A stretch of DNA of 64,000 nucleotides from a virus: the IMG/VR virus record IMGVR_UViG_3300025699_000004, one strand, 5' to 3'. Positions 1-9,123 of this stretch are shown piece after piece. Position numbers and translations under genes: made by a program. The notes beneath the pieces are model-generated. The model did not search any database. It had not been told where the DNA came from and saw nothing but the letters and a program-made list of their open reading frames with translations. Within the stretch, counting starts at the first letter, position 1. Each line of letters begins with the position of its first letter.

Positions 1-555
1 ACGAGTTTCATCATCGTAGTATTCGGTGTAGTGTTTGTGTTTTGTTTTGTTATTGTGTGGAAGTTGTTGTTGTGGAATTCCAATTTTGTCGCAGATTACG
101 TTGAAGTCTTGTTGGAGGTTTTCAAATTTGCCTATAAAGTCACAACATTTTGTAGATTCGTATTGAAACCCATGAGCCCATATATTCTCGTAGTTTTGAA
201 TATATTGTTTAAAGTTGATGTCCGTTAAATCTCTTTTTTTATTTGTAAATTTTTTTTTCTCAAAACAATACCAAGACACAACTCTGTCCCAAGGATTTCT
301 TACAAATGCAAATTTAAAATAATTGCTATATGAATTGAGGAAGTTTCCAGAACGTTTACAATCACTGTGTTTGTATTTGTGTGGTTCAGTCGCATCAACT
401 CCACTTTTGCAATTTAAGTTTGTGCTATCATCACCAACTAATTTTCCAACAATTAAATTATCATCTTCAATCTTTTCAAGTACACCGTGGATTGAAGTTG
501 TACCCGTTTTCTCTGGTGCAATAAATACGAATTTATATTTTGGTGATATAATCAT
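1..555 (-). CDS. Sulfotransferase family 2-like protein (C-terminus runs off window edge; absent from ORF track)
   Basis: Manual translation from ATG 555: MIISPKYKFVFIAPEKTGTTS...FAFVRNPWDRVVSWY...DFIGKFENLQQDF...HYTEYYDDETR, open to base 1. Confidence 0.85.
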   Translation of the reverse strand, partial: MIISPKYKFVFIAPEKTGTTSIHGVLEKIEDDNLIVGKLVGDDSTNLNCKSGVDATEPHKYKHSDCKRSGNFLNSYSNYFKFAFVRNPWDRVVSWYCFEKKKFTNKKRDLTDINFKQYIQNYENIWAHGFQYESTKCCDFIGKFENLQQDFNVICDKIGIPQQQLPHNNKTKHKHYTEYYDDETR

Positions 556-561
556 TGTAAA

Positions 562-1422
562 TTATCCTTTAAATTTTAAAATTTCTGTTAAACTATCTGC
601 GCTTGCAGGTAAATTGTGAGTTTTGCATAATTTAATCGCAGTGTTAAATCCACTTGATTTCCAGTTTTCCCCAGACAAATTATTAATTTTAAATAAGTTT
701 CTTGTTTTCTTATTCTCAGTTTCATAATTTGCATTTTGGATTGTATCTTGCATAAAATTCTCAAGTTTTTTATTTAAAGTATTTTCCCAGTAGTCTTCAT
801 CTAAACAATCTTCGTAAAAAATAGTCAAACAATTTTTATGATACTTTTTCAGTGTGTTATAGTAAACTTCTTTTTCCCAATCGCATCTGATTGCATCTGC
901 TACAATTAAATTGTAGTTTAAATCTAAGGCTTTATCGGTATTATTAATTTGATTCTTATAGTGTTTATTGTTATGATACACTCCTGTTGTTTTAGCAATT
1001 TGATTGCTTGTTGCTTGTGCAATTGAATCTTTACGAACAAAGTGAATTGCTGGATATTTTAAAATTGAATTTATGCTACATTGATCGTACATTATATTTA
1101 CAAATTCATTGTCATTCAGTGAGTCGTGTGCATCATCGTAAAATTGTTCAGTTTTTTGAATAATTTTATTTGTGTCAAATACTTCAAATGCTTCGAGAGT
1201 AGATAACTTTCTCAAATAACCTTTTTCTGTAATAAATCTTGGTTTAGGTAAATAATAAGAATTCAGTTTTTTTCTTTCAATGAATGTTTTGCTTGAAATT
1301 TCTTCCCACCAATTCACATTATTTTCTTTAGATACGCGCCAACGACCAAACATTCCTGCCAGCTTTTCACAAAACCAAGTTGTTCCACTTCTTTGTGACG
1401 ATACTATAAAGAATTTTCTCAT
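562..1422 (-). CDS. Stf0-like sulfotransferase
   Basis: N-terminal PAPS-binding loop SSQRSGTTW; FVRKDSIAQATS...A.TTGVYH resembles Stf0 family. Confidence 0.7.
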   Translation of the reverse strand: MRKFFIVSSQRSGTTWFCEKLAGMFGRWRVSKENNVNWWEEISSKTFIERKKLNSYYLPKPRFITEKGYLRKLSTLEAFEVFDTNKIIQKTEQFYDDAHDSLNDNEFVNIMYDQCSINSILKYPAIHFVRKDSIAQATSNQIAKTTGVYHNNKHYKNQINNTDKALDLNYNLIVADAIRCDWEKEVYYNTLKKYHKNCLTIFYEDCLDEDYWENTLNKKLENFMQDTIQNANYETENKKTRNLFKINNLSGENWKSSGFNTAIKLCKTHNLPASADSLTEILKFKG

Positions 1423-1427
1423 TTTAT

Positions 1428-2048
1428 TTACTCTCCAAATTTATACCCAAAATATTCAATGTCTCGTGCATATTTTTCCGCAACAATTTGTTTTGTTTCT
1501 TCATCATAGTATTCGGTGTAGTGTTTATGTTTTGTTTTGTTTTTATGTGGAAGTTTTTGTCGTGGAATTCCTATTTTGTCGCATACGGTGTTGAAGTCTT
1601 CTTGGAAGTTTTCAAATCTTCCGATGAAATCAACAAGTAGCTTTCCATTATCATCGTAAAGAAACTTGTACTGATGATCCCATTGTACATGGAGTTTTGC
1701 CACGATCAAGAGGTTTATATAATCATTAAATGATGCAGATTCAGTAATACCAATGTGATCCATTAAATCAGGTCGTTTAGTTATATTGTAATTGTACTGA
1801 GAAACCATTTTTTCCCAAGGGTTTCTTACAAACGAAAATGTAAAATACTCGGAAAATATATCTCCACCAACCTCTTCTATAATGTGTGATGACATTAAAT
1901 GTTGAAGTCCTCCTGTTTGATATTTATTTGGAGACATCCAAAGGTCTTTTGTAGTACGTTTTTTCGGTTTAAATAATAAATCTTCTACACTTGTTCCACC
2001 TGTTTTCGGAATATGAATAAAAATAAATTTATGTTTGTGATTTATCAT
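1428..2048 (-). CDS. Sulfotransferase family 2-like protein
   Basis: FIHIPKTGGTS (5'-PSB) and FVRNPWEKMVSQY (3'-PB) motifs. Confidence 0.85.
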   Translation of the reverse strand: MINHKHKFIFIHIPKTGGTSVEDLLFKPKKRTTKDLWMSPNKYQTGGLQHLMSSHIIEEVGGDIFSEYFTFSFVRNPWEKMVSQYNYNITKRPDLMDHIGITESASFNDYINLLIVAKLHVQWDHQYKFLYDDNGKLLVDFIGRFENFQEDFNTVCDKIGIPRQKLPHKNKTKHKHYTEYYDEETKQIVAEKYARDIEYFGYKFGE

Positions 2049-2051
2049 TGC

Positions 2052-2624
2052 TTATACTCCAAATTTATACCCAAAATATTCAATGTCTCGTGCATATTTT
2101 TCCGCAACGATTTGCTTTGTTTCTTCATCGTAGTATTCGGTGTAATGCGGGCCTTTAATTTGATGTTCATGCTTTAATTTACACTTAGGCATTCCAGTTG
2201 AATGACATATTTTGCGAAAATCCTCCTCAATACTCTCAAATCTCCCAATAAAATCAAAGCTCTTAAAATCACCAATCATTTGTGAATATGAAAATGCATG
2301 AGGCGCATCATCAGGGTCGAACTTTTTCAAGAACTCCTTAAAAGTCATTTTTCTATAAAATTTCTTTTCACGCTTTCTGGGCCAACGAAATTTTTTATTG
2401 GTATACCATTTATACTCGGAAACATATTTATCCCAGGGATTTCTAACAAAAGTAAACTTAAAGTATTGATTGAATTTTTCAGGCCCCAACCTTTTCTCCA
2501 TTCTTTTGGCTGGTAAATGGTGATGCCCAACCCTGAAACAGTAAGGTTTTATGCATTTCTCAATAGACGTGCCTCCTGTTTTAGGAATGTGTAAAAAAAT
2601 AAATTTATAAATATCGCTGATCAT
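2052..2624 (-). CDS. Sulfotransferase family 2-like protein
   Basis: FLHIPKTGGTS, FVRNPWDKYVSEY, FIGRFE motifs. Confidence 0.85.
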   Translation of the reverse strand: MISDIYKFIFLHIPKTGGTSIEKCIKPYCFRVGHHHLPAKRMEKRLGPEKFNQYFKFTFVRNPWDKYVSEYKWYTNKKFRWPRKREKKFYRKMTFKEFLKKFDPDDAPHAFSYSQMIGDFKSFDFIGRFESIEEDFRKICHSTGMPKCKLKHEHQIKGPHYTEYYDEETKQIVAEKYARDIEYFGYKFGV

Positions 2625-2626
2625 TT

Positions 2627-3280
2627 TTACTTAATTGAAAATAATTCTGAATGCTTTTCGTTCATAAAACTTAAAACCAACTCTTCGTCATATATATTAA
2701 AAACTCGATCAACCTCTTTGAGGCATTCGATATATTTTTCTTCAAATTCCTTAATGATTTCAACGGGTAGCCTTAGCGCCCCTGCTTTTAATTTTATTTT
2801 GGGAAACTTAGCTTCCAATAACCCTCCATATGGATTTCCTGGTATTGAATGATATTTCTTTATTACCATTTTTTTTTCTAGTCCACCGTTTAGAATTTCT
2901 CCGAAACCTCTATTAAAAACACAATCTCTCCACACTATATCTTTAACTAAAGAAAGATCACTAACCCTTTTGAAAAGAAGAATCTTGCTTGTCCATATAG
3001 TAGCTAGTTTAAGATACGAAGAACTCTTTATACGCAACCCGTATTTAGTATATACATAATCCATAGATTCGCAGTATTTTGTTAAATTTTTTAAATAAGG
3101 TTTGCTTGGCAAATCTTTAAAATTTAATTTAATATTATTACTAAAATCTATTTTTTCTTCTGAGAAAAAATTATCTATATTCAACTTCTTTGCGCCTCGA
3201 AGGTGCCTGCCATTAGTTGGCTTGACGTTACCTTCTACCTTCCAGTATCCAGAGAACGTGGCTCTATTTAATATACTCAT
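2627..3280 (-). CDS. Hypothetical protein, possibly HtrL/YibB-like glycosyltransferase-related
   Basis: IWTSKILLF...VWRDC loosely matches the SK...W.D.G pattern; inside glyco operon. Confidence 0.35.
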   Translation of the reverse strand: MSILNRATFSGYWKVEGNVKPTNGRHLRGAKKLNIDNFFSEEKIDFSNNIKLNFKDLPSKPYLKNLTKYCESMDYVYTKYGLRIKSSSYLKLATIWTSKILLFKRVSDLSLVKDIVWRDCVFNRGFGEILNGGLEKKMVIKKYHSIPGNPYGGLLEAKFPKIKLKAGALRLPVEIIKEFEEKYIECLKEVDRVFNIYDEELVLSFMNEKHSELFSIK

Positions 3281-4088
3281 TAATTATGTAGTTTTTTTTA
3301 TTCAGTTGCAGATTCTTTAATATTTTCGGATTGATGTTAAAAGTTTCGTAGTCTCGTGTGCCGTGCCCTGTATCGTTCTGCCTGTAATGGTTCAGACCTA
3401 ACTCTTCTATTTTAGGATTGAACCATTTTCCGTAAGGAGCAGTTTGCGCCTTATGAGGCTGTAGTTTTGTGGTTATTGATGGCTTGTAAATATATTTTCT
3501 AAATTTATCACCTTTTGAATGAAGCATTGATTTTGATATTTCTGTAATTAATTTATCAGGGTTTAGATCTCTAGACTCAAATCTAATCTGCCTCATCCTG
3601 ACCAGTCCTACTGTATCACTCAATCCAGACAAGTATTCCTTGATATCATTTTTTCGCCCTTGATCTATTACTAGAAATTCATCCATATCTAGACTCGCAC
3701 ACCAATCGACGCCTTTTCCTCTTAATCTTGCTGCACAATGTCCGTGAGCTCGAGCTTGAGCATATTCGACTTTACCGTGTCGGTCTAATGGAGACCATTC
3801 CACAAAATGAACTCCTGGATATTTGTCTGAAATATCTTTTAAAATTGAATCAATCTGTTTTTCATTTAAAGGAACCTCCTGTTTAAAATCCCACCCGTGC
3901 TTATTTACTCTTCCAGGCTTAATATATTCATTCTTCATCCTTATCTCCCAGAAGGGTTTCGTTTGTACTTTTGAATTATCATACAGATAAAATTCATCAA
4001 AACCTAATTGCGAATGATAATCTATCCATTCTTCCAGCCATAAGATATTCTCTTTGGCGATAAAAACATTATGCATTGCCGTTTTCAT
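3264..4088 (-). CDS. Glycosyltransferase, GT92/GT2-like
   Basis: LEEWIDYH..LGFDEFYLYDN and LDMDEF (DxD) motifs. Confidence 0.75.
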   Translation of the reverse strand: MKTAMHNVFIAKENILWLEEWIDYHSQLGFDEFYLYDNSKVQTKPFWEIRMKNEYIKPGRVNKHGWDFKQEVPLNEKQIDSILKDISDKYPGVHFVEWSPLDRHGKVEYAQARAHGHCAARLRGKGVDWCASLDMDEFLVIDQGRKNDIKEYLSGLSDTVGLVRMRQIRFESRDLNPDKLITEISKSMLHSKGDKFRKYIYKPSITTKLQPHKAQTAPYGKWFNPKIEELGLNHYRQNDTGHGTRDYETFNINPKILKNLQLNKKNYIINEYIK

Positions 4089-4564
4089 TAATCTTCCTCC
4101 TGATTTACGGAAAGGGAAAATTGTTCTTCCTCTTCCTTAGATACTTTTTTCTTACTTTCAACTTTATGTATTCTCTTTCTAAGCCCAGTACTTGAAAAGT
4201 CGTGGTCTCTTGAATTATAATATATTTCTATGCTCTTTTTCAAACATATATCTTTTCCAGAAAAATCTACATCTTTGTAATCAGATCCTATAATTCTAAT
4301 GTTCACGTCGTAACACAATAAAATATCATGCAAATCTTTTTCTAAATTATATGGTATAATTTCGTCTACATATTTAACAGCAGAAAGCTGTATATAGCGC
4401 TCAACAATACTTTGAACTGGAGCATTTTTTTGAGGTCTTTCCACTTGCGGGTCAACATGCAGACCGCATACTAAATAGTCGCATTTACTTTTAGCTTCTT
4501 TTAGCATTGAAATGTGCCCAGAATGCAAAAGGTCAAAGGTTGAAAATGTTATTCCTGTTTTCAT
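4088..4564 (-). CDS. tagD: Glycerol-3-phosphate cytidylyltransferase-like (TagD family)
   Basis: TFDLLHSGH HxGH motif, ER...L.AVKYVDE, FSSTGLR. Confidence 0.8.
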   Translation of the reverse strand: MKTGITFSTFDLLHSGHISMLKEAKSKCDYLVCGLHVDPQVERPQKNAPVQSIVERYIQLSAVKYVDEIIPYNLEKDLHDILLCYDVNIRIIGSDYKDVDFSGKDICLKKSIEIYYNSRDHDFSSTGLRKRIHKVESKKKVSKEEEEQFSLSVNQEED

Positions 4565-4801: not shown

Positions 4802-5179
4802 TTAATACCCCATGTCTTCGTAATCATCCCAGTAAACAGAGCCCAATCCACAATCTCTTAACAAATTAACTCCAATGGCTCTATCTCCCCTTTTGCCTGG
4901 ATCCATATCGTTAATTAAAACTCTAGGTCCTCTTTCGATTTCCATGATTAATCTGCTATAAGGAAGGTCGTACATAGACAATTCTTTCTCGGTGTGCTCT
5001 CTTAAATACTCAGGCCTTGCTGTTGTCAGTATTACCATATGACCGTTACTTGACCAGCAGTCTAATTTTTCTTTTACTCCGTCCAGAAGTTCTGGTGTTG
5101 AAGTCTCATAAGTTTCGAACTTTCTATATTTAAATAAAGTTCCATCTATATCGCAAAATATTGTATTTTTCTTTTCCAT
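4802..5179 (-). CDS. HAD-superfamily phosphatase (EcbF/BcbF or PNKP-phosphatase-like)
   Basis: IFCDIDGTL motif I; ILTTARP motif II. Confidence 0.75.
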   Translation of the reverse strand: MEKKNTIFCDIDGTLFKYRKFETYETSTPELLDGVKEKLDCWSSNGHMVILTTARPEYLREHTEKELSMYDLPYSRLIMEIERGPRVLINDMDPGKRGDRAIGVNLLRDCGLGSVYWDDYEDMGY

Positions 5180-5228: not shown

Positions 5229-6437
5229 TCATTTTAATTTCATCTGTTCTTGAAATCTGGAATCCCAGTCTATTTCTTCTGGCGAGCTAAAATCTAAGAG
5301 AGAAAATACATAAAGTGCTAAAGCTGAAACAACGAAAACCCCTAAAACTACCCATGCTACATTTTTCCTTAGCCAACTCTCTGGCTTTTCTGGTTTAGGC
5401 TCTTCTGGTTTAGGCTCTTCTGGCAAGGGTTCTTCTGGTGTGGGCTCTTCGGGCTCAGGGTCTGGATAGGGATGTGGTATATCGGGCTCAGGTTTTTTTT
5501 CTTCTGGAAATTCTTCTTTCAGGAGTTTCTCTATATCTACAACTCCATGACCCCAGTTTTTATCTTTCCCCTTTTCCCCTTTGTCCGATGTATATCTTAA
5601 CAAATGACCTCTTATTTCTTCTACTGTCTTGCAATCATTAAGGCCTGTTTCTTTTTCTTTTTGTTTGTGCTTTGAAAGCATTAAAGCTATGATTCCAACT
5701 AAATACGGGCAAGCCATTGAAGTTCCGCTTAAAGATGCATATGCATTGTTTAAGAAGGTACTGAATATTCTATGTCCAGGAGCGGCCCAATCAACCTCTT
5801 TACCTCTAGATGAAAAATCTGCAATTTCCCCGTTCTTATCAAAAGCCGCCACCGATATTGTTTCTGGGTACGCAGCTGGATAACTAACTCCAGCGTGTCC
5901 AGAATTACCAGCCGAACAAACTATGGGTATGTTTTTCTCATAAGCTTTTATGACTGCTTCCTCTATATCTTTACTGGGCCTACTTGCCCCCAAAGACATC
6001 GAAATTATGTCTGGCTTAAAATCTATAGCCATTAATATGGCTTTAGCTACATTAGAGGAGCTACCAGAGCCGTTTCTATTAAGTGCTTTTATACAAATGC
6101 ACCTCGACTCTGGAGCTACCCCAACATATCCCTGATTATTGTCTTTTGCGCAAATAATGCCCACGCAATGAGTTTGGTGCCCGTTTAAATCTTCAATACC
6201 TTCTCCTGACACGAGATTGACTCCAGCAATCGCGTTATCTCCGATATCGTTATGATTGGGCTTACCTGTATCAATTACAACTATACTTATTCCCTTGCCT
6301 TTCGATATTTTCCAAGATTCTGGAATATTGCAATATTTCATCCCCCAGTCTAAAGACTGAGAGAGGGTCGCTGTCATTTCGTTAACTTGATAATTTGGTA
6401 TTGATACTTCTTCTTTTTCGCTTTTTTGTTTTGGCAT
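5229..6437 (-). CDS. Subtilisin-like S8 serine protease with Pro/Glu linker and C-terminal TM helix
   Basis: IDTG, NGHQTHCVGII, SAGN, GTSMACP catalytic motifs; PEEPKP repeats; hydrophobic VAWVVLGVFVVSALALYVF. Confidence 0.9.
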   Translation of the reverse strand: MPKQKSEKEEVSIPNYQVNEMTATLSQSLDWGMKYCNIPESWKISKGKGISIVVIDTGKPNHNDIGDNAIAGVNLVSGEGIEDLNGHQTHCVGIICAKDNNQGYVGVAPESRCICIKALNRNGSGSSSNVAKAILMAIDFKPDIISMSLGASRPSKDIEEAVIKAYEKNIPIVCSAGNSGHAGVSYPAAYPETISVAAFDKNGEIADFSSRGKEVDWAAPGHRIFSTFLNNAYASLSGTSMACPYLVGIIALMLSKHKQKEKETGLNDCKTVEEIRGHLLRYTSDKGEKGKDKNWGHGVVDIEKLLKEEFPEEKKPEPDIPHPYPDPEPEEPTPEEPLPEEPKPEEPKPEKPESWLRKNVAWVVLGVFVVSALALYVFSLLDFSSPEEIDWDSRFQEQMKLK

Positions 6438-6457: not shown

Positions 6458-7285
6458 TTACTCAGGCCTCTTCCCTAAAGGTTTTCCATCCTGACCTATT
6501 TCGCCCGCTCGTATTTTAGTAGCTGATACAGCTTGCAATTCCTTACTTAGCTCAAGTTGTTCGATATTATATCCAACTCCTCTGCCATAAAAAACGTCCA
6601 TTATGTTTGGAACTTCTATGATTTTCACTTTATCTCCGAAATCAACGCATGCAGCCATAATTTCAGCCTTGACTTTCTCAAAGCTGTAAGGGTTGCTGTC
6701 GTCCATTCCTCCTACATCTCTAAGAGCTATGCAGCACTGACCAGTTCTTTTAATTGCTTCTGCAACTAAAGTTTTATGGCCAACATGAAAAGGTTGATAT
6801 CTGCCTATTAGTAATGCGGTTGGAGCTTGGTTGTCCCATTTTTCCGTGGCATAAATATTCTCTAATGCAGTTTCGCACCATTCTTGAGGAGTGCCTTCGT
6901 TTAATATCAAATCCCTATCGTCCCACCTTTCATCTTTGGTCGGATCCTCAAAAATAGCATTCGTATCAGCATATCTACCTTCTTCGATTCTATTGACCCA
7001 AATTACATAATCGGGATTAAAAAGCTTTCTAGCATCTTCCGTGGGGCAACAAAAATCAGATACAACATATCCACCTCCTAGTGCGGACCAATCAGCCAGC
7101 TTGCCCATTCTCCTGGAATGCTCGTTTCTATCTTCTTCGGTAAACCCTAAGTCTTTATGAATTTCCTGTCTAACAGCATCAGCGTTAAACCAGACAGCGT
7201 TCAATTTAGGAACTAATAGTTCTGCCAGAGTAGTTTTACCAGACCCTGGAAGCCCCATTATTAATATTTTCCTTTTAGTTTTCAT
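6458..7285 (-). CDS. cysC: Adenylylsulfate kinase-like domain fused to HxGH nucleotidyltransferase domain
   Basis: GLPGSGKTT P-loop, NADAVR...DLGF..EDR.EH.RR; C-terminal GRYQPFHVGH and VSATKIR. Confidence 0.8.
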   Translation of the reverse strand: MKTKRKILIMGLPGSGKTTLAELLVPKLNAVWFNADAVRQEIHKDLGFTEEDRNEHSRRMGKLADWSALGGGYVVSDFCCPTEDARKLFNPDYVIWVNRIEEGRYADTNAIFEDPTKDERWDDRDLILNEGTPQEWCETALENIYATEKWDNQAPTALLIGRYQPFHVGHKTLVAEAIKRTGQCCIALRDVGGMDDSNPYSFEKVKAEIMAACVDFGDKVKIIEVPNIMDVFYGRGVGYNIEQLELSKELQAVSATKIRAGEIGQDGKPLGKRPE

Positions 7286-8553: not shown

Positions 8554-9123
8554 ATGATATCTCATTCTCATAAATTTATATTTATTCATATAAATCGCAC
8601 GGGAGGAACTAGTGTCGAGCATGCCTTATCCGCATTTGGGGGAGTTAATAAATGGGAGGATTTTAATAGGCATGATGGAGCGGGAAAAATTTCAGAAAAA
8701 CCTGAGTGGAATGATTATTTTAAATTTTCTATAGTTCGCAATCCGTGGGATAAAGAATTTTCAGACTATAAATGGCACAAAAAATTAAAACACAAAAAAG
8801 TCTCAGAATATTCAACATTTAAAGATTATCTTCTGCTCCCCGAACAAACAAAGGGCAAGGGTTTATTTAGGTGGCATTCTAATCAATATGACTGGCTTAT
8901 TTCTAAAAACGGAAAATTAGAAGTTGATTTTGTGGCTAGATTCGAAAATTTACAAGAAGATTTTTATAAAATTTGCCAAAATATAAATATAGATCCAATA
9001 AGTTTACCTCATAAAAATAAAACTAAAAAGTTAGATTATAGACAGTTCTATACAGATGAAACTTATAGTTGGGTAAAAGCAAACTACAAAAAAGACATCG
9101 ATCACTTCAATTATAAATTTTAG
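8554..9123 (+). CDS. Sulfotransferase family 2-like protein
   Basis: FIHINRTGGTS, IVRNPWDKEFSDY, FVARFENLQEDF. Confidence 0.85.
   Translation: MISHSHKFIFIHINRTGGTSVEHALSAFGGVNKWEDFNRHDGAGKISEKPEWNDYFKFSIVRNPWDKEFSDYKWHKKLKHKKVSEYSTFKDYLLLPEQTKGKGLFRWHSNQYDWLISKNGKLEVDFVARFENLQEDFYKICQNINIDPISLPHKNKTKKLDYRQFYTDETYSWVKANYKKDIDHFNYKF

Follow-up and report, generated by a model that had tools for sequence, protein, structure and literature searches.

A viral fusion of a trimmed APS kinase and a minimal HxGH nucleotidyltransferase as a candidate PAPS synthase

In this study, we analyzed a 64,000-nucleotide stretch of viral DNA (IMG/VR record IMGVR_UViG_3300025699_000004, referred to below as the window) with a focus on one of its genes, P0001, whose 275-aa product joins a trimmed adenosine 5'-phosphosulfate (APS) kinase to a small HxGH nucleotidyltransferase (NT) domain. 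The genomic company kept by this gene family makes it rather probable, in our judgement, that the NT domain is a sulfate adenylyltransferase and that P0001 is a self-sufficient synthase of 3'-phosphoadenosine 5'-phosphosulfate (PAPS). To our knowledge, sulfate activation is known from two enzyme types only, Sat and CysDN. We lean slightly towards the wider proposal that the ~120-aa NT domain, which would derive from a nicotinamide mononucleotide (NMN) adenylyltransferase (NMNAT), is a third, undescribed class of ATP sulfurylase, forming part of a phage PAPS synthase and supplying the "missing" sulfurylase of SAR11 bacteria; the NT of SAR86 may have the same role. No paper on this kinase-NT fusion or on a phage PAPS synthase was found in the literature.

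Domain composition and family of P0001

The preliminary description of this DNA, made from the sequence alone, had reported a 275-aa gene at 6458-7285. The open reading frame (ORF) is present there on the minus strand, read from 7285 down to 6458, and the plus-strand frame of the same interval, which contains many stops, was ruled out as coding. The AlphaFold2 model of the whole protein had a predicted local distance difference test score (pLDDT) of 91.6, and phrog_10255 matched it from end to end (E 8e-50). This full-length match, together with the more than 4000 metagenomic relatives described below, argues that the fusion is not a product of chance or assembly. The parts of the gene are listed here; invariance counts refer to a 48-sequence family alignment, and catalytic residues were checked across 48-56 diverse sequences.

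6458..7285, minus strand: whole gene P0001, APS-kinase-like domain plus minimal HxGH nucleotidyltransferase (Pfam, phrog, AlphaFold2)
6836..7285, minus strand: trimmed APS-kinase-fold P-loop domain, residues 1-150 (Pfam, profile, Foldseek)
7232..7255, minus strand: Walker A / P-loop GLPGSGKT, residues 11-18 (G11, G16 and K17 invariant in 48 family members)
7109..7186, minus strand: residues 34-59, 'NADAVRQEIHKDLGFTEEDRNEHSRR', counterpart of the DGDxxR ... LGF ... DRxENxRR substrate-binding stretch (alignments to 2yvu, 1d6j and 2pey; conservation)
6461..6835, minus strand: minimal HxGH nucleotidyltransferase domain, candidate sulfate adenylyltransferase, residues 151-275 (AlphaFold2, VIA-align, identity to SAR11 proteins)
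6776..6805, minus strand: GRYQPFHVGH, HxGH motif of the NadM type, residues 161-170 (G161, R162, Q164, H167 and H170 invariant)
6569..6589, minus strand: YGRGVGY loop, residues 233-239, family-specific YGR[DG]VGY (Y233, G234, R235, G238 and Y239 invariant or nearly so)
6509..6526, minus strand: SATKIR, residues 254-259, second nucleotidyltransferase motif of the ISxTxxR type (R259 invariant)

Judged by sequence, profile and predicted fold, the kinase half is a relative of APS kinases. The CysC motifs reported for it earlier are present, namely GLPGSGKT and the APS-kinase signature stretch 'NADAVRQEIHKDLGFTEEDRNEHSRRMG...DFCCP', and Pfam APS_kinase matched it at E 2e-12 (47.8 bits, cut-off 21.1), over profile positions 5-90 of 152 only. 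The family profile matched the APS kinases of the Protein Data Bank (PDB) at E 1e-18, and the PDB sequence matches of this half were APS kinases (aligned to 2yvu, 1d6j and 2pey). In a Foldseek search with the full model, the majority of the top matches were again APS kinases (E 3e-8, TMt 0.6-0.78), headed by 1xjq. With CysC (PF01583; 1m7g, 2ofx, 3uie, 2yvu) the kinase half has in common the P-loop, the D..R / LGF / DR..RR stretch, the F..P strand and the fold. Within the substrate stretch, D36 (>90%), R39, F48 and R53 are conserved among the 48 family members, as is the F..CP strand; the Asn of EN in DRxENxRR is His in P0001 and Gln in most of the family. The substrate of this kinase would be APS.

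The second half also agrees with what was first described: a compact domain of ~120 aa, directly after the kinase, with GRYQPFHVGH (161-170) and VSATKIR (253-259). Modelled alone, it reached a pLDDT of 92.8. By sequence and predicted fold it is closest to the NadM-type NMNATs and to phosphopantetheine adenylyltransferase (PPAT), not to Sat. GRFQPFHxGH, NP[FY]S..E and S.T.IR are common to the NT domain and NadM (1f9a; the NadM-Nudix proteins of Francisella and Synechocystis, 2qjt and 2qjo), with 27-28% identity over the first ~80 residues. The sequence alignment with NadM breaks off past the third strand, near domain residue 85, and does not include the YGRGVGY loop, which lies further on; a structural alignment with NMNAT covered 110 of 164 residues. 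The NT domain is ~45-50 residues shorter than NMNAT (~120 vs ~165-170 aa, about a third missing), lacks the segment after the third strand, and has features of its own, with VR(D) in place of (I)GS after strand 2, PNI, the YGR[DG]VGY loop and R189, which is also invariant in the family. It matched CTP_transf_like weakly and NadM-type NMNAT models at E 2.5e-9, far under their curated cut-offs (NCBIfam NF003786, 36.8 vs 397 bits; TIGR01527, 21.3 vs 181 bits; 10-20x below). The ESM Atlas label for the domain was 'cytidyltransferase'. The gene contexts differ from those of NadM as well, being related to sulfur and not to NAD.

Sat (PF01747; 1v47, and 4dnx from Allochromatium vinosum) belongs to the same HUP/HxxH superfamily as the NT domain. 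The NT domain differs from it in having no detectable sequence membership, GR[FYW]QP before HxGH and about a third of Sat's size. The PUA-like N-terminal domain and the ~200-aa catalytic domain of Sat are not present in P0001, in agreement with the earlier statement that this is no canonical ATP sulfurylase. Structural alignment with VIA-align related the NT domain to the Thermus thermophilus ATP sulfurylase 1v47 (Z 8.9, 116 residues, rmsd 2.9), the joint-longest alignment among the ten best, and the further Z scores in this comparison with Sat were 6.9 (1r6x, 1j70) and 6.7 (1x6v).

The family is large and widespread. More than 4000 metagenomic proteins matched P0001 at E<=0.001, many of them on contigs of 150-220 kb, and the best 120 matches listed were near-full-length with 69-88% identity. 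Among cultured phages, the fused gene occurs in Xylella, Xanthomonas, Stenotrophomonas and Clavibacter phages. Representatives at 50% identity comprised fused, kinase-only and NT-only forms, along with kinases fused to the membrane domain DUF4118; the contigs of metagenomic representatives were too short for their gene contexts to be used. A scan of cellular genomes with a 12-sequence alignment found the family to be common in Pelagibacteraceae (SAR11), SAR86 and other Alphaproteobacteria; SAR86 carries a split kinase/NT pair, and neither Sat nor CysD was found in the one SAR86 genome searched. Kinase and NT stay fused or adjacent across thousands of proteins, with split and overlapping genes in SAR11 among them, which suggests that the two domains catalyze consecutive steps.

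Some accessory features of the family were also recorded. DUF4118, the four-helix membrane domain of KdpD, is fused to the trimmed APS kinase, with or without NT, in seven proteins (P0122, P0190, P0196, P0199, P0204, P0225 and P0265), and these fusions, at either end, suggest that in some organisms the pathway is anchored in the membrane. In 26 of 80 viral loci (L051:7836-8048 and 25 others), one of the first genes after the fused gene, usually the next one, encodes a predicted DUF2061 membrane protein of ~70 aa, which may act as a partner in the membrane, for instance in the handling of sulfate or PAPS. The fused gene and the end of a NADAR-domain gene overlap in Salvovirus phages, as in Xylella phage Bacata (L001:5559-6735), where an ORF two genes upstream of the fused gene has a sub-threshold Sulfotransfer_4 match (E 9e-4).

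Gene neighbourhoods: sulfotransferases and APS reductase

A sulfation/glycan operon on the minus strand begins with P0001. As stated in the preliminary description, sulfotransferases stand beside it; five were identified in the window with Pfam and with a self-built Sulfotransfer_2 hidden Markov model (HMM), the group of four at 1..2624 matching the latter at E 1e-50 to 1e-66.

1-555, minus strand: sulfotransferase gene, cut by the window edge
562-1422, minus strand: sulfotransferase gene, Stf0-like (weak)
1428-2048, minus strand: Sulfotransfer_2 gene
2052-2624, minus strand: Sulfotransfer_2 gene
8554..9123, plus strand: fifth sulfotransferase (Sulfotransfer_2), on the other side of P0001

The association recurs elsewhere. 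Using self-built Sulfotransfer_2 and Sulfotransfer_3 HMMs and a radius of 10 kb, we detected a sulfotransferase near the gene in 25 of 80 IMG/VR loci (26/81 with the window), and in several lineages it was the immediate neighbour. Four related phage genomes (three 100% and one 90% complete by CheckV) carry 5-10 Sulfotransfer_2 genes each. Neither PF01747 (Sat) nor PF01507 (CysD/PAPS_reduct) was found in these four or in L052, a more distant phage record (86% complete), in which Sulfotransfer_2 was not found either. In Alphaproteobacteria, the gene beside the fused gene encodes a tetratricopeptide repeat (TPR)-Sulfotransfer_3 protein in L100 (E 3e-40), an arylsulfate sulfotransferase (ASST)-like protein in Inquilinus limosus (L092) and a Sulfotransfer_2-like protein in L088. 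A linkage that is recurrent and independent of the sulfotransferase family argues that the product is PAPS.

A second line of evidence comes from APS reductase in SAR11. We sampled 121 Pelagibacteraceae genomes, including one flagged as unpublished (G060, with nadD but neither NT nor aprA), on which no claim depends. NT was present in 71 of them; about 11 have the fused form, about 40 have a kinase gene and an adjacent NT gene, in most cases with an overlap, and in about 25 NT stands alone, with no kinase match at E<=1e-10. It occurred in 59 of the 60 aprA-positive genomes and in 12 of the 61 aprA-negative ones (Fisher p 4e-21, shared ancestry uncorrected), and in the sole aprA-positive genome without NT, aprA lies on a short contig. 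The distance from the NT start to aprA, both on one contig, is 1.8-5.8 kb in 24 genomes. This co-occurrence, and the adjacency to aprMBA described next, are new observations for Pelagibacteraceae.

Four apr loci were compared (L166-L169), with Pfam covering the L166 genes and two genes of L169, and tblastn to L166 covering the others. In the annotated locus L166, NT stands directly upstream of an aprM-like gene, aprB and aprA. The order there is a Cys/Met pyridoxal-phosphate (PLP) enzyme, a major facilitator superfamily (MFS) transporter, a 242-aa ORF on the opposite strand, a TenA/PQQC-like gene and NT (L166:4568-4957), followed by a 263-aa protein, AprB, AprA, a 116-aa protein and a TauE/SafE sulfite exporter; the 263-aa protein, which has no Pfam match, is presumably AprM. 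In L168, the split kinase and NT genes lie upstream of the TenA-like gene, and in L169 the fused form occupies that place. In A. vinosum, sat is co-transcribed with aprMBA (PMC3779200). NT beside aprMBA in SAR11 holds the place of sat in that operon, which supports the reading as an ATP sulfurylase.

Among the 121 genomes, only 5 (3 of the 60 with aprA) had a canonical Sat and 7 a CysD, and no genome with CysD has aprA or NT; neither enzyme was found in 57 of the 60 aprA-positive genomes. CysD and NT never occurred together, a statement based on seven CysD genomes only. Most SAR11 have been reported to lack ATP sulfurylase though using AprAB (PMC10356861). A gene that tracks and adjoins apr in genomes where Sat is mostly missing is the obvious candidate for the ATP sulfurylase step. 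The phage NT shares 49-53% identity with four NTs from aprA-adjacent SAR11 loci and with the unlinked NT of HIMB1495, and it has every family-invariant residue of the SAR11 proteins, including the rarer YGRGVGY variant; over its whole length, P0001 shares 49% identity with the fused form of SAR11. In its genomic partners, namely APS kinase, APS reductase and sulfotransferases, the NT domain resembles a Sat. The early suggestion of a non-canonical sulfate adenylyltransferase therefore gains support from gene context, in the tracking of aprA in SAR11, the adjacency to aprMBA and the three sulfotransferase families.

Several further observations concern these SAR11 loci. The apr cluster (L166:3895-9720; L167, L168, L169) keeps the TenA/THI-4/PQQC-like (Haem_oxygenas_2) gene and the 116-aa gene. 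NT follows the TenA-like gene in two loci and precedes it in two, and the TauE/SafE exporter is present in three of the four, none being found in L169. The split genes encode a kinase of ~136 aa and an NT of ~124 aa, with an overlap of 4 nt in L125 (9992-10773) and a longer one in L168; in seven loci an autotransporter gene is inserted between them. Genome G012 has a canonical Sat no more than about 0.6 kb away from a short ORF resembling APS kinase (C1:311365-312698), a conventional Sat-CysC pair, as well as an NT-kinase pair beside aprMBA. A full-length APS_kinase gene occurs in Pelagibacter sp. HIMB1587 (L165:5150-10958) and HIMB1495 (L164:4865-9050), with a PPDK_N/PEP-utilizer neighbour in both. 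L165 also contains a C26 glutamine amidotransferase, NTP_transf_3, a CMP-sugar synthetase-like gene and a PseB-like dehydratase, and L164 has Formyl_trans_N instead. By analogy, the L165 set looks like the O-methyl phosphoramidate (MeOPN) capsule pathway of Campylobacter (Cj1415-1418), and the full-length SAR11 enzyme there is probably a CDP-amidate kinase and not a PAPS-forming CysC.

The window has a low GC content (~32%), carries rIIA and three tRNAs, and shows small genes in long same-strand runs. With rIIA as the basis, we assign it to a T4-like phage, and it can be described as a large marine phage with several sulfate-adding enzymes. Downstream of P0001, the operon contains a subtilase, a small HAD phosphatase, a separate TagD-like cytidylyltransferase and a GT92/GT2-like glycosyltransferase, ahead of the four sulfotransferase genes. 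The last three of these non-sulfotransferase genes were assigned by Pfam.

4802-5179, minus strand: small HAD phosphatase
4088-4564, minus strand: TagD-like cytidylyltransferase, a separate gene
3264-4088, minus strand: GT92/GT2-like glycosyltransferase

The HAD protein (125 aa) weakly resembles the 3'-phosphatase domain of polynucleotide kinase (HAD_PNKP) and, speculatively, could strip the 3'-phosphate from 3'-phosphoadenosine 5'-phosphate (PAP), the inhibitory by-product of sulfotransferases, in a CysQ-like role. The S8 subtilase gene (5229-6437, minus strand), directly downstream of P0001, has a proline-rich PARP-like repeat tail and is an odd member of a glycan/sulfation operon. A megablast of 25 kb of the window against phages gave matches at tRNAs only. 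By tblastn, a 412-aa window protein had no match and a 352-aa one was a DNA methyltransferase, and a promoter/terminator scan around P0001 returned nothing above chance.

Points against the proposed function and alternative explanations

Several results weigh against the NT domain being a sulfate adenylyltransferase and P0001 a PAPS synthase. Enzyme activity is known for no member of the family. The NT profile was nearest to MjNMNAT 1f9a (E 2e-11). In the fold comparison proposed earlier, Sat was matched, through 1v47, and ranked below MjNMNAT (Z 10.9) and PPAT (Z 10.4); likewise, NMNAT and PPAT, and no Sat, were among the matches listed by Foldseek for the C-terminal domain, Sat being found by VIA-align. 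Pfam gave no PF01747 match in P0001 at E<=1, and the NT domain has no QxRN motif, the motif there being GRYQPFHVGH. The kinase half scored 43.8 bits against the TIGR00455 equivalog cut-off of 138.7, and it departs from CysC further in a lid shortened to R[YF].DTN..FE.P, in a match that reaches position 90 of the 152 Pfam positions, and in the first Asp of DGD, which is Asn34 in P0001 (N34-A-D36) and variable across the family. In human PAPSS1, both Asp residues of the DGD(N) motif are essential (PMC8528679). Given the altered motif, the kinase activity is a putative one.

The gene contexts contain contrary points as well. About two thirds of the viral loci have no sulfotransferase within 10 kb by the two HMMs. 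The association between NT and aprA comes from a single bacterial family, with shared ancestry uncorrected, and homologues of aprA, aprB and TauE were found neither in the window nor in the 80 viral loci or the 80 top genome loci, so the apr linkage has so far been shown only within Pelagibacteraceae. Even there, 47-970 kb separate the split pair from aprA in about 30 genomes, such as HIMB1495. Loci of the HIMB1495 type form a one-carbon/osmolyte catabolic operon (DMGDH-like, methyltransferase, M24 hydrolase, HalD-like oxygenase, enoyl-CoA hydratase) in which no sulfotransferase was seen. A complementary distribution of Sat and NT was considered and rejected, as four of the five Sat-bearing SAR11 genomes also carry NT. 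AprBA can itself make APS, and the absence of Sat is therefore no proof of a new sulfurylase behind PAPS in SAR11. Finally, the NADAR neighbour in Salvovirus phages, seen only there, hints at NAD/ADP-ribose chemistry.

These points bear on three alternatives. In the first, which we regard as unlikely, the kinase makes PAPS from host APS and the NT domain keeps an ancestral NadM-like adenylyltransferase activity on NMN or nicotinic acid mononucleotide (NaMN), serving as an NAD+ top-up during infection or in NAD salvage of SAR11, with the fusion a convenience or a NadR-like pairing. The NADAR neighbour would fit this, as would the best sequence and fold matches of the NT domain, with which it has the GRFQPFHxGH and NP[FY]S motifs in common, and reconstitution of NAD+ by phage kinase and NMNAT enzymes is known (NARP3, PMC13464706). 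On the other side stand the reduced length of the domain, the loss of the second half of the NadM alignment, scores an order of magnitude or more under the NMNAT cut-offs, and invariants of its own (R189, YGR.VGY). The kinase, too, is like APS kinase and not like the ribosylnicotinamide kinase of NadR, of which 9x6f matched at the P-loop only (E 0.47). A search for nadD was positive for 112 of the 121 SAR11 genomes, among them the majority of the ~25 NT-only ones, so NT is not the cell's only NMN/NaMN adenylyltransferase and is not needed for NAD synthesis; an initial pattern in which NT-only genomes lacked nadD (two of two) was rejected by the 121-genome search. An NMNAT would moreover leave unexplained the linkage to aprMBA and TauE, the occurrence in 59 of 60 aprA-positive genomes and the sulfotransferase neighbours.

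The second alternative, in formal terms a serious one since pairs of this kind exist, but to which we give a shade less credence still, is that the pair makes another 3'-phospho-nucleoside-5'-diphospho-X donor, X being a phosphate ester, phosphonate or amidate, by the logic of CoA synthase (PPAT plus dephospho-CoA kinase) or of Campylobacter Cj1416 followed by the APS-kinase homologue Cj1415. In these systems, as proposed for P0001, a nucleotidyltransferase makes an NMP-X compound and a P-loop kinase then phosphorylates its 3'-OH. APS-kinase homologues with substrates other than sulfate compounds do exist, Cj1415 being an example. The rank of PPAT as second-best structural match, the altered DGD motif, the CoA-related genes (enoyl-CoA hydratase, CoA_binding) adjoining the pair in HIMB1495-type loci, and the phosphoramidate-like cluster around the full-length SAR11 APS-kinase gene of two isolates (PEP-utilizer, C26 amidotransferase, NTP_transf_3) can all be counted in its favour. 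However, CoA synthase and the Cj1416/Cj1415 pair use other acceptors, Cj1416 has another nucleotidyltransferase fold, and the contexts of P0001 point to sulfate. Its recurrent partners are bona fide sulfotransferases (E down to 3e-40), APS reductase and a sulfite exporter, all of which handle sulfate or APS, and the neighbourhood of the phage gene contains no genes of a phosphoramidate or pantetheine pathway.

It is very improbable, in our view, that the NT domain is catalytically idle or an APS/PAPS-binding regulatory or scaffold module, with APS coming wholly from host Sat, CysDN or AprBA: fungal ATP sulfurylase, with its APS-kinase-like allosteric domain, is a precedent for such recruitment in this pathway, 1i2d and 1m8p were among the fold matches of the P0001 model, and CysDN also occurs in some hosts that carry the fused gene (Inquilinus), but both His of HxGH, the Arg of GRxQ and the Arg of SATxIR are invariant in the diverse sequences checked, and the free-standing NT genes of ~25 SAR11 genomes make a silent regulatory domain unlikely.

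Proposed reactions and biological meaning

Under the proposed function as a PAPS synthase, the C-terminal HxGH domain would derive from a NadM-type NMNAT that has lost the part holding nicotinamide riboside. In a first step, it would move AMP from ATP to sulfate, giving APS and pyrophosphate (PPi); in a second, the fused trimmed APS kinase would phosphorylate the 3'-OH of APS to yield PAPS and so pull the unfavourable first step. The PAPS would feed the phage's own sulfotransferases, which presumably modify a glycan made by the glycosyltransferases next to them. In SAR11, the NT domain, alone or beside the kinase, would run in reverse next to APS reductase, with sulfite and AMP giving APS, and APS and PPi giving ATP and sulfate, thereby filling the step that most SAR11 lack. 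Sulfate as the acceptor, and the direction of flux in each setting, are what we infer from these gene contexts.

The closest known counterparts are the metazoan PAPSS1 and PAPSS2 (1x6v, 1xjq), in which a single chain likewise carries an N-terminal APS kinase and a C-terminal adenylyltransferase of the HxxH superfamily, and for which the same two steps apply as are proposed here. They differ in size, being ~620 aa, and in having a canonical Sat domain with its PUA-like domain, QxRN and GRD loop, whereas P0001 has a trimmed kinase lid and a ~120-aa second domain of the NadM/PPAT type without a PF01747 match. The domain order and the kinase fit a bifunctional PAPS synthase of the metazoan type, and the context of the gene points to the second activity. 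P0001 would be an enzyme that works like PAPSS1/2 yet stands outside the Sat family, with a non-orthologous, NMNAT-derived domain in replacement.

If this is true, a third and miniature type of sulfate-activating enzyme would alter the way in which sulfur pathways are read from genomes. A 275-aa PAPS generator in one chain would also be a useful biocatalyst for enzymatic sulfation. Large marine phages would bring a self-contained sulfation toolkit, consisting of a PAPS synthase and 5-10 sulfotransferases. SAR11 are the most abundant marine bacteria; they carry APS reductase and are reported to be without ATP sulfurylase and unable to assimilate sulfate. For them, the NT domain would close the AprBA route of sulfite oxidation for organosulfur compounds such as taurine, with a gain of ATP.

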